Position numbers and translations under genes: made by a program. Source: Candidatus Moraniibacteriota bacterium (GTDB lineage Bacteria; Patescibacteriota; Minisyncoccia; Moranbacterales; UBA1568). From it: 64,000 nucleotides of DNA. The notes beneath the pieces are model-generated. The model was not told the origin of the DNA and ran no database searches. It saw only the letters and a list, made by a program, of their open reading frames with translations. Shown here piece by piece: positions 31,239 through 34,145 of this stretch. The DNA is taken from contig CAVURJ010000002.1 in the NCBI GenBank assembly GCA_963743885.1, positions 36,721 through 100,720 of the forward strand, in the 5' to 3' direction. How positions within the stretch are numbered: position 1 is the stretch's first letter; every line of letters begins with the position of its first letter.

Positions 31239-34145
31239 ATGGCTCAAAAAAACTACAATCCGAAGGCAATCGAGGCGAAGTGGCAGAAGTATTGGGAGAA
31301 GCATGGTACGTATCGTCAGTATAGCCGCAAGCAGGGCTTCTATGTGCTCGATATGTTCCCGTATCCGTCGGGAGCAGGACTCCATGTCGGTCATCCGCGC
31401 GGATATATTGCGACGGATGTTGTGGCGCGCTTCAAGCAGCTTGAGGGTTGCGGTGTGCTCCATCCGATGGGATGGGACGCGTTCGGGTTGCCAGCTGAAC
31501 AGTATGCTCTCAAGAACAAGGTGCATCCGTCGATCGCGACCAAGAAGAATGTCGCGACGTTCAAGAAGCAATTGGAGAAGATCGGTCTCACCTATGATTG
31601 GGAGCGCGAGATCAATACGACCGATCCGGAATATTATAAGTGGACACAGTGGATCTTCCTAGAGATGTGGAAGCGGGGCTTGGCATACGAATCGAACGAA
31701 CCGATCAATTGGTGCCCGTCATGCAAGACCGGTCTTGCCAATGAGGATTTGGAGCAGGGGAAGTGCGAGCGTTGCGGGACAGTCGTCGAGAAGCGGCCAC
31801 TCCGCCAGTGGGTGCTTGCCATGACCAAGTATGCTGACCGGTTGCTCAAGGATCTCGATAGTAAGGACCTTGATTGGAGCGAGTCGATCAAGGAACAGCA
31901 GCGTAATTGGATCGGACGGAGCGAAGGTGCTGAGGTTGCCTTTCCGATTGTCGGGACCGAAGAAGAGCTCCGCGTGTATACAACGCGCGTCGATACGATT
32001 TTCGGGTGTACGTACGTCGTGGTCGCGCCTGAGCATTCTTTGCTGAAGAATCAAGAATCAAGAATCAAGAATCAAGAGGAAGTCAGAAAGTATATAAAGA
32101 AGGCGGCGAACAAGTCTGATCTTGAGAGGACGGAACTGGCGAAAGAGAAGACCGGCGTGAAGCTCGAGGGTGTCGAGGCGATCAACCCATTCGATGGGGC
32201 GAAGGTCCCGGTGTATGTCGCGGACTATGTGCTCGGTTCCTACGGTACAGGCGCGGTGATGGCGGTCCCGGCGCATGATGAGCGCGATTTTGAGTTTGCG
32301 AAGAAATATAGTTTGCCGATCAAGCTTTCAGTGGCGCCGTTTTTTTCTGACACAGAAGGTAAAGATGCTGTACGAAAAGACAAGCCGACGGTGCGACGGC
32401 GGACCGCTTATGCGCTCGTCAAGCATTGGAGCGAGGACAAATATATTTGCCTGGATTGGGAGAAATTCGGATGGCATTCGGGGATCATCGGTGGCATCGA
32501 AGAAGGCGAGGACCCGATTGTGGCGGCTTCTCGTGAAATTATAGAAGAGACTGGCTATCAGAATCCGGTATTTGTAAAGTATATCGGGGAAGCGATGCAC
32601 AATTATTTTTATGCCGCTCACAAGGAAGTGAACCGTTATGCGGATGGTGTTGGGATGCTGTTTCAATTGAAGAACGGTAAATGGAACGAGCCAGACAAAG
32701 AAGAAACAAAAAACCATAAGGCAGTCTGGATTTCTGGCGACGAGATGACATCATTCCTTACACTGAGAAACTTCCAATATATGTGGGAAGTCTTGAAAAA
32801 GGGAGAGGAGTGCTATACAGAAGACGGGGTACTCATCGATTCTGGAGAGTTCACTGGGCTTGCGTCGGCAGAGGCAAGGAAGAAGATGACAGCATGGCTC
32901 TCGAAGGAGAAACTTGGCAAGAAGAAGGTGAACTACAAGATGCGTGATTGGACGTTTAGTCGGCAGCGCTATTGGGGCGAGCCGATCCCGCTCGTACATT
33001 GTGAGTTCTGTGGCATCGTGCCGGTGCCGGAGAAAGACCTTCCGCTTCTTCTTCCAAAGGTGAAGTCGTATGAGCCGACCGATACGGGCGAATCGCCGCT
33101 TGCGGCTATCTCGAAGTGGGTGAATACCAAGTGCCCGCAGTGCAAGGGGCCGGCCAAGCGCGAGACCAATACCATGCCGCAGTGGGCGGGTTCGAGCTGG
33201 TACTATCTTCGCTATATCGATCCGAAGAACAAGAAGGCTCTTGTCGACAAGAAGAAGGAGCAGAAGATGATGCCGGTTGATCTCTATGTCGGCGGGACGG
33301 AGCATGCGACAAGACACCTTCTCTATGCACGTTTTTGGCACAAGTTCCTCTATGATATCAAGATCGTCTCTGGCAAGGAGCCGTTCAAGAAGCTCGTGAA
33401 CCAGGGGCTTATCGTGGCATCTGATGGCCGTAAGATGAGCAAGCGCTGGGGCAACGTGGTCAATCCAGACGATATGATCGCAGAGTTCGGGGCGGACGCA
33501 TTCCGTACCTATGAGATGTTCATGGGGCCTTTTACACAGTCGATTGCCTGGAATACCGAAGGTCTTGTCGGGACGCGGCGGTTCCTTGAGAAAGTCTGGA
33601 GACTTTCTCAGAAAACAGTTAACAGTCAACAATCAACGGGGAATAAGAATATTGAGACGTTGCTTCATAAGACAATCAAGAGCGTGACAGAAGATATTGA
33701 AGGATTCAAGTTCAATACAGCGATTAGTTCGCTCATGATTCTTGTGAACGCCCTCGAAAAAGAGCCAGAAATATCACTCATCACTTATCGGACATCTCTT
33801 ATCCTCTTAAGTCCGTTCGCCCCGCATATCGCGGAAGAGCTGTGGTCGCAATTGAAGAATCACCCTTCGACAGGCTCAGGGTCATCCAAAACGGAAGAGA
33901 AATCAATATTCCTTGCTGAGTGGCCGAAGTGGGACAAGAAGAAAATCGTTGAGGAGACGGTGAATGTCGCCGTACAGGTGAATGGTAAGGTGCGCGCTGT
34001 GATCGCGGTCGCCGCTGGAAGCGATGAGGCTGCTGTGAAGGCGCAGGCGCTCGCCGATGCGAACGTACAGACACATATCGCCGGTAAGAACGTCCGTAAG
34101 GTAATCTACGTTCCTGGACGAATCTTCAATATCGTTGTGGGATAA
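31239..34145 (+). CDS. leuS: Leucyl-tRNA synthetase carrying an in-frame inserted NUDIX hydrolase domain
   Basis: '[16 protein letters not shown]' HIGH region, '[19 protein letters not shown]' editing-domain T-rich region, '[10 protein letters not shown]' KMSKS. About 163 aa inserted between 'YSLPIKLSV' and '[13 protein letters not shown]' contains a perfect Nudix box '[23 protein letters not shown]'. Confidence 0.9.
   Translation: [968 protein letters not shown]

Follow-up and report, generated by a model that had tools for sequence, protein, structure and literature searches.

A Nudix hydrolase domain nested within the CP1 editing domain of a leucyl-tRNA synthetase from Candidatus Moraniibacteriota, and its relatives across the candidate phyla radiation

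The leuS gene of a Candidatus Moraniibacteriota bacterium (assembly GCA_963743885.1, contig CAVURJ010000002.1) encodes a leucyl-tRNA synthetase (LeuRS) that carries a nested Nudix hydrolase domain. The gene lies in a stretch of 64,000 nucleotides of this contig (positions 36,721 to 100,720, forward strand), here called the window, and its features are collected in Table 1. The open reading frame (ORF) spans 968 amino acids (aa) in one open frame with no frameshift, and its product was found to be a complete bacterial-type LeuRS with a score of 1041.7 bits against TIGR00396 leuS_bact (cutoff 548.4) and with the Pfam domains tRNA-synt_1, tRNA-synt_1_2 and Anticodon_1. The LeuRS editing domain PF13603 is present with 212 bits and is split into two stretches; ahead of the insert the profile is matched to about position 146 of 185, and the second stretch is matched as well. 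The motifs for aminoacylation and editing are all intact, and a working synthetase appears to be the best explanation for this set of motifs. The leucine-specific domain is absent from the window protein (aa ~728-732, nucleotides (nt) 33420-33440), where residues ~581-636 of the Thermus enzyme remain unmatched.

The closest solved structure is the LeuRS of Thermus thermophilus (1h3n; phmmer E 1e-235). Residues 4-364 of the window protein align with residues 2-361 of this structure and residues 523-728 with residues 374-580, so that the roughly 160 extra residues replace a 12-residue loop (362-373). This loop lies within the CP1 editing domain, the rest of which resumes after the insert. A preliminary description of the locus had put the extra segment after the editing domain; both the alignment to 1h3n and the PF13603 match place it inside CP1. 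A known LeuRS-specific domain at this position was rejected, as the Thermus enzyme has only the 12-residue loop there.

The nested module opens with a conserved lead-in at its N-terminus (APFF...RRR), continues with the Nudix fold and ends in a pair of helices. The NUDIX profile PF00293 was matched by the whole leuS product with 33.3 bits (aa 412-505) and by the insert alone (nt 32331-32819) with 37.5 bits and an E-value of 2.9e-9, both above the gathering cutoff of 21.1. The Nudix box agrees with the consensus GX5EX7REUXEEXGU at every position, and in an AlphaFold2 model (pLDDT 94.4) the whole insert takes the alpha/beta/alpha sandwich of a Nudix fold. The preliminary description, which had proposed a complete Nudix domain in frame in an intact LeuRS, is borne out by the profile score, the perfect box and the single frame; its reading of the box as a textbook one was also right, with coordinates 3 nt off. 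The junctions read ...IKLSV/APFF... and ...ECYTE/DGVL..., and no flanking repeats beyond short chance ones were found in the window DNA. The GC content is 0.45-0.49 over the insert and about 0.52-0.56 around it, a modest dip with no marked shift in composition. An intein was rejected on three grounds, as the junctions hold no splicing residues, no Hint or intein family of Pfam is matched and the whole insert is Nudix-folded. A PADLOC search of the insert gave no defence-system match. We regard it as very probable that this is a genuine Nudix domain, nested in a LeuRS that is functional.

Table 1. Coordinates of the synthetase and Nudix features in the window
Feature	Position (nt)	Strand	Evidence
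ileS, 3' part; gene runs off the left window end	2..1426	+	ORF translation; tblastn of relatives
Stand-alone Nudix gene, 179 aa, NudE / ADP-sugar-like subfamily	1423..1962	+	PF00293; NCBIfam
leuS, LeuRS with nested Nudix domain	31239..34145	+	Single ORF, TIGR00396, Pfam, 1h3n alignment
HIGH signature HVGH, aa 49-52, aminoacylation site	31383..31394	+	Motif search
T-rich editing motif TTRVDT, aa 248-253, CP1	31980..31997	+	Motif search; aligned with TTRPDT of Thermus LeuRS
HDERD editing-site motif, aa 346-350, conserved editing aspartate within	32274..32288	+	Motif search and 1h3n alignment
Nested Nudix module, aa 365-527	32331..32819	+	
Nudix box, aa 418-440, catalytic glutamates E433, E436, E437	32490..32558	+	Consensus match
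Clade-specific 12-aa motif downstream of box, aromatic pair at +17/+18, near-invariant K, N, R	32604..32639	+	Column statistics
C-terminal remainder of CP1 and return to catalytic core	32820..32978	+	1h3n alignment
KMSKS-type signature KMSK, aa 732-735	33432..33443	+	Motif search

The survey of related genomes was carried out with one genome per GTDB species, which gave 80 LeuRS loci. Most of them come from metagenome-assembled genomes of Patescibacteria, or the candidate phyla radiation (CPR), including Moraniibacteriota, Paceibacteria, Gracilibacteria, CPR2, Liptonbacteria and others, and the last third, mainly from Verrucomicrobiota, served as insert-free comparators. Plain LeuRS have 73-82 residues between the HDxRD motif and the RDWxxSRQR motif, whereas this distance is about 220 residues at some 25 of the 80 loci. 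By BLASTP the window insert is homologous to the inserts of 24 loci, two of which contain two copies. An exhaustive HMMER search with the insert alone against 1.84 billion representative proteins (clustered at 50% identity) yielded 334 proteins with E<=0.001, of which 191 reached E<=1e-10. Among the best 150 representatives, to which three from a separate homologue search were added, 103 are LeuRS or LeuRS fragments, and a Nudix profile built from these proteins located 197 domain copies in 178 proteins, with two copies in 13 of them and three copies in 3. The impression of a lone case given by the preliminary description does not hold, as the architecture is widespread; by sequence, Nudix-bearing LeuRS is a common design in CPR metagenomes. 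The earlier remark that no described LeuRS of this kind was known does stand, since literature searches on LeuRS or aminoacyl-tRNA synthetases together with Nudix, including CPR and Patescibacteria, found no publication describing a LeuRS or a prolyl-tRNA synthetase (ProRS) with a nested Nudix domain. These sequences sit unremarked in public metagenome data.

Copies of the clade occupy at least four sites in LeuRS, and some of them are in tandem at one site. By LeuRS-core coordinate, 15 copies were found at ~210 (the entry to CP1), 6 at ~244, 123 at ~362 (the site used in the window) and two or three at ~434-478; CP1 is the host at three of the four sites. The neighbour-joining tree built from the Nudix domains contained too much noise to show whether two LeuRS sites represent separate ancient insertions. 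The clade was also found in an archaeal-type ProRS (P0086; L165 2906-4837), a complete gene on an 8.5-kb contig with the domains tRNA-synt_2b, HGTP_anticodon and ProRS-C_1, which has the Nudix domain inserted after its anticodon-binding domain and before its C-terminal domain; P0043 represents a fragment of such a ProRS. Two further proteins (P0046 and P0067) consist of tandem Nudix domains only, and dozens of members are stand-alone proteins of 154-209 aa, one of them annotated from a Colwellbacteria genome. Taken by its known members, the clade is a Patescibacteria-specific Nudix group that is mostly nested in aminoacyl-tRNA synthetases.

One stand-alone member (P0002; L081 3759-4292) is encoded between the ATP synthase genes atpB and atpE, within their operon. 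In the deposited translation of this member the G of the Nudix box is replaced by W (WWVEWDE), and the translation is not reproduced with table 11, which suggests that UGA encodes glycine (code 25) and was read as in code 4.

Nine clusters of free-standing proteins of ~273-308 aa combine a shortened CP1 with a Nudix domain nested at the same loop as in the window, and their editing motifs are decayed. The gene of one of these mini-CP1-Nudix proteins (P0093) occurs in a conserved same-strand cluster (L166 166-6438, L167 and L168) with the order of two unknown proteins (~417 and ~349 aa), a CYTH protein, the mini-CP1-Nudix protein, a nucleoside 2-deoxyribosyltransferase-like protein, a second CYTH protein and a 418-aa P-loop kinase-like protein. 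The cluster looks like a nucleotide-processing, RNA-end-processing or conflict system.

The three glutamates of the box (E16, E19 and E20) are intact in 139 of the 144 LeuRS-embedded copies and the full pattern G..E..RE..EE.G in 111, at a mean pairwise identity of the Nudix domain of only ~37%. Beyond the box, the positions that are invariant or nearly so comprise an R before strand 1, two or three W, the K, N and R of an HK..NR motif and one H. Of about 198 copies, 187 have the K, 178 the N and 168 the R of the motif downstream of the box, and the aromatic pair that follows the box (F/Y at +17, Y/F at +18) is present in 94-95% of copies. Such a pattern would be expected of an enzyme under selection, unlike an inert spacer. 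Because the catalytic glutamates are kept in nearly all embedded copies, the domain is probably an active enzyme, and we predict with good confidence a Mg2+-dependent hydrolase of a nucleoside-diphosphate-X compound. A Nudix fold that has become purely structural, as a tRNA-binding or protein-interaction module, could account for the 5 of 144 embedded copies in which a catalytic glutamate is lost; with all three glutamates in 96.5% of these copies, and the full box so often retained at so low an identity, such a pseudo-enzyme is very unlikely. Among the Nudix-bearing LeuRS the T-rich motif is intact in 20 of 21 and the HDxRD motif in 21 of 21, from which it follows that the Nudix domain adds to editing and does not replace it.

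The best structural match of the insert is 2azw, an uncharacterised Nudix protein of E. faecalis. The next characterised matches are hydrolases of adenine dinucleoside polyphosphates (ApnA), namely 3i7u (Aquifex aq_158 Ap4A hydrolase), 9cxx (M. tuberculosis Rv2985), 1vc8 (Thermus Ndx1 Ap6A hydrolase) and 4mpo (Chlamydia CT771), with RppH, DIPP and ADP-ribose pyrophosphatases close behind in structural score. As the nearest characterised structures are ApnA hydrolases, clearance of Ap4A by the insert is plausible. The idea is also reasonable because Ap4A arises on synthetases through the attack of ATP on the aminoacyl-adenylate that is bound to the enzyme. ApnA hydrolases are reportedly marked by an aromatic residue that lies ~16-18 positions beyond the Nudix box, an observation ascribed to Dunn et al. 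in 1999; the conserved aromatic pair at +17/+18 may thus be taken as a lead and not as a test, as such aromatics are not exclusive to these enzymes. The clearance of mis-activated aminoacyl-adenylates, which the preliminary description had put forward, is unlikely on chemical grounds. Nudix enzymes cut a pyrophosphate linkage, which aminoacyl-AMP, with its single phosphate in a mixed anhydride, does not have.

Our favoured reading, which we hold tentatively, is that a functional LeuRS harbours an active Nudix enzyme in a CP1 loop that permits insertions, that this enzyme is a member of a CPR clade which markedly prefers synthetases as hosts and that ApnA-type compounds would be its likeliest substrates. 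According to this proposal, LeuRS would have acquired, within a loop at the surface of CP1, a Nudix pyrophosphohydrolase as a self-contained domain. The likeliest substrates would be Ap4A, Ap3A and other ApnA, and the fused domain may destroy these by-products or signals near their source; its target would be released small molecules and not the bound adenylate. The narrower assignment of ApnA as the substrate, in a role that is coupled to the synthetase, is possible and should be taken as somewhat doubtful.

Several observations weigh against this proposal. None of the curated Nudix subfamily models of NCBIfam, including those for Ap4A hydrolase and RppH, reached its cutoff with the insert, the best being RppH NF001938 with 26.2 bits against a cutoff of 116, and E. 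coli LeuRS is not known to be among the strongest producers of Ap4A. The neighbourhoods of the stand-alone members are unrelated to synthetases, as these genes were found in an ATP synthase operon, beside RNase T or beside another Nudix gene. Close LeuRS relatives lack the insert (L033 with 72% core identity; L005, L032 and L049 with ~69%), which makes it dispensable. The CP1 loop used in the window also carries other domains in other CPR LeuRS, including a Ser_hydrolase of alpha/beta fold (L047, 49.3 bits), HAD_2 (L069, 43.2 bits), weakly matched nucleotidyltransferase-like domains (L007 and L008) and unknown inserts of ~110 aa (L005, L012 and L020). Since one loop carries unrelated enzymes, the link between Nudix and LeuRS may be architectural and not mechanistic, and the variety of its inserts argues for a permissive site, not for a specific chemical partnership. 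Finally, across the core columns of the full alignment of 51 full-length LeuRS with the Nudix domain at the window's site, the pairwise identity of the Nudix domain is only weakly correlated with that of the LeuRS core (Spearman 0.20, against 0.75 for one half of the core versus the other), and the way in which loci were sampled by LeuRS similarity and proteins by Nudix similarity may weaken this correlation. For host pairs with core identity of >=70% the Nudix identity is bimodal, either near that of the core (0.69-0.98) or far lower (0.20-0.50). The window and L001 share 71% of the core and 69% of the Nudix domain, the window and L021 share 70% and 26%, and L026 and P0098 share 81% and 39%; the window and L006 share 56% of the core and 76% of the Nudix domain. 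These decoupled identities would fit an exchange or re-acquisition of Nudix cassettes; they would also fit tandem duplication at the site, as in P0089 and P0004, followed by the loss of different copies.

The main rival follows from these same observations. The Nudix domain might be a housekeeping hydrolase of the ordinary sort, or else a cassette of neutral or selfish nature, which settled in a hot spot for insertions within a gene that is essential and constitutively expressed. It would work independently of LeuRS, with no mechanistic coupling to aminoacylation or editing, and its persistence would reflect that no deletion other than a precise one could be tolerated. The unrelated enzymes in the same loop and in other LeuRS loops, nucleases among them, the near decoupling of Nudix from core similarity, the absence of the insert from close relatives and the stand-alone copies in unrelated gene contexts all favour such a passenger. 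A passenger fits less well with the strong enrichment of the clade in synthetase hosts and its recurrence in ProRS, an unrelated class II synthetase, with the Nudix domain that is still joined to a remnant of CP1 in free-standing proteins and with the several copies found in one LeuRS. The window insert itself has neither flanking repeats nor a marked composition shift, and differential loss after tandem duplication could equally produce the decoupling, which the sampling may moreover exaggerate. We consider this rival unlikely, though a serious one. The range of domains extends further than the window's loop, since other loops of CPR LeuRS were found to contain a Ser_hydrolase, the endonuclease DUF559 (119 bits) and the nuclease PDDEXK_3 (109 bits). 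The LeuRS genes with nested domains at one loop or another also include L030, L038, L028, L046 and L029, and LeuRS lengths reach 1100-1350 aa; a literature search on DUF559 and Patescibacteria found nothing relevant. With such varied domains at CP1 and at other loops, CPR LeuRS is a general host for nested domains. It might accordingly be conjectured that CPR LeuRS, and sometimes ProRS, offers a 'safe harbour' to domain cassettes that lie in frame, do not splice and are moved or exchanged between synthetase genes (Nudix, serine hydrolase, HAD, nucleotidyltransferase-like, DUF559 and PD-(D/E)XK), with the window Nudix as one such cassette, maybe co-opted with CP1 to act on the tRNA acceptor end, and the mini-CP1-Nudix proteins as trans-acting derivatives. 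This is a rather improbable conjecture; if true, the cassettes would be a protein-level analogue of inteins that is kept in the mature enzyme.

A role at the acceptor end of tRNA, where the nested Nudix would work together with CP1 on an RNA end and not on a small molecule, is less likely than the passenger, and on the whole quite improbable. Its reaction might be the removal of a 3'-pyrophosphate added by toxic enzymes of the alarmone-synthetase type, or the conversion of a 5'-triphosphate or a 5'-cap-like adduct to a monophosphate, as by RppH and NudC. CP1 binds the 3' CCA end of tRNA, with the 5' end adjacent, and the placement of Nudix within CP1 at three of the four LeuRS sites would suit such a role. 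The retention of Nudix in the minimal CP1 of the ~280-aa proteins with decayed editing motifs suggests that the Nudix domain uses CP1 there as a scaffold for binding. RppH is among the structural matches and is the best, sub-threshold, NCBIfam match; the P0093 cluster includes two CYTH triphosphate-tunnel proteins, the P-loop kinase and the nucleoside deoxyribosyltransferase-like protein, and inserts such as the esterase-type hydrolase, the HAD phosphatase and the nucleotidyltransferase-like domains could act on RNA ends. All of this support is circumstantial. The ProRS insertion lies between the anticodon-binding and C-terminal domains, outside any editing domain, the stand-alone members of the clade have no RNA-binding extension, and the endonuclease inserts (DUF559 and PDDEXK_3) do not fit. 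An artefact, whether a chimeric assembly or one ORF wrongly read from a gene that is split or frameshifted, has a negligible probability and was rejected for practical purposes, as the frame is continuous and homologous junctions recur in two dozen independent species-representative genomes and in more than 100 protein clusters from different sources.

The host part of the window protein resembles other bacterial LeuRS with CP1 (Thermus 1h3n and 2byt, E. coli 4aq7) in its HIGH, KMSKS, T-rich and HDxRD motifs and in its anticodon-binding and C-terminal domains. It differs from them in the ~160-aa Nudix domain that takes the place of the CP1 loop 362-373 and in having no leucine-specific domain. 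The insert shares only 16-24% identity with the ApnA hydrolases and with 2azw, which are free proteins unlike the nested insert, and its clade has motifs of its own, namely the R before strand 1, LDW..FGW, HK..NR and H...W. Going by its name and description, the model NF040702 (ileS_w_GNAT) represents a comparable arrangement, an isoleucyl-tRNA synthetase (IleRS) with a nested N-acetyltransferase, in which a class Ia editing synthetase and a small-molecule enzyme domain share one polypeptide. The host and the GNAT fold are different in that case, and the window LeuRS reaches 82.6 bits with the model (cutoff 1999) through the shared synthetase core only. In NadM-Nudix, a bifunctional NMN adenylyltransferase / Nudix hydrolase, the Nudix domain is fused to an ATP-consuming adenylyl-transfer enzyme and hydrolyses an adenine-nucleotide derivative related to the chemistry of its partner; this fusion is end-to-end, belongs to the ADP-ribose pyrophosphatase subfamily and has an unrelated host. 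The mini-CP1-Nudix proteins (~280 aa) are comparable to the trans-editing proteins AlaX, YbaK/ProX and ThrRS-ed as homologues of an editing domain that are encoded apart from the synthetase. AlaX, YbaK/ProX and ThrRS-ed derive from class II editing domains, whereas the mini-CP1-Nudix proteins have a class I CP1 origin, decayed editing motifs and a nested Nudix domain.

Aminoacyl-tRNA synthetases are among the best-studied enzymes, and their accessory domains usually signal extra functions, as in eukaryotes. Here a Nudix domain that is catalytically intact, as far as its residues indicate, lies inside the proofreading domain of LeuRS in more than 100 CPR lineages, in some cases as three copies; ProRS carries it as well. 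This recurrence suggests that, in organisms whose genomes are minimal, the charging of tRNA is connected with nucleotide-pyrophosphate chemistry in a way that has gone unrecognised, with Ap4A and related alarmones, or modified tRNA ends, as candidate substrates. A single CP1 loop that accepts many unrelated enzyme domains, in LeuRS that elsewhere host even nucleases, bears on the origin of multidomain proteins. The pattern of nested domains bears also on whether protein-coding genes host non-splicing mobile cassettes, which may matter as much as the Nudix-LeuRS itself.

A second Nudix gene is found at the left end of the window, where its start (1423) overlaps the stop codon of ileS (end 1426) as ATGA; this overlap, noted in the preliminary description, is seen directly in the sequence. 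Its product scores 67.5 bits with PF00293, and its best NCBIfam match is NudE (45.7 bits, below cutoff); the PRK05379 models, which represent NadM-Nudix, are weak matches. Membership of the leuS-insert clade was rejected for this protein, as the two share only the 24-residue box region and the box alone can be aligned. The adjacency was followed in 80 metagenomic loci that encode relatives of this Nudix protein, with tblastn for the C-terminus of IleRS. The C-terminus was found immediately upstream in 7 of the 80 loci, which are the seven closest (62-88% identity), and no adjacent IleRS C-terminus was found in the more distant loci, many of them covered for 4 kb upstream; one marginal match of 27% identity lies ~1 kb upstream in L120. 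A deep conservation of the adjacency was accordingly rejected. The coupling of ileS and Nudix is real and, judged from these loci, appears evolutionarily shallow, so that it adds little to a general link between synthetases and Nudix. The preliminary description had counted it as a second, independent link, which is weak given the unrelated subfamily and the restriction of the adjacency to the closest loci. The same protein has a weak match (31.6 bits), mainly over the box region, to the PADLOC candidate defence family PDC-S07.

Among the neighbours of leuS, a HAD-like hydrolase gene of 214 aa (34800-35444, +) with a DFDRT motif lies just downstream (PF12710, 21 bits, below cutoff); it is noteworthy because HAD domains are nested in LeuRS of other CPR genomes. 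A tRNA-Leu with the anticodon CAA (38140-38223, -) follows 4 kb downstream of leuS and is the sole tRNA and the sole Rfam match in the window. Further downstream, a giant ORF of 5212 aa (41654-57292), for which Pfam gives nothing in the first 2000 residues, is followed by a 1492-aa protein of FG-GAP repeats (57324-61802; 363 bits). Both products are probably large surface proteins, which are typical of CPR genomes.

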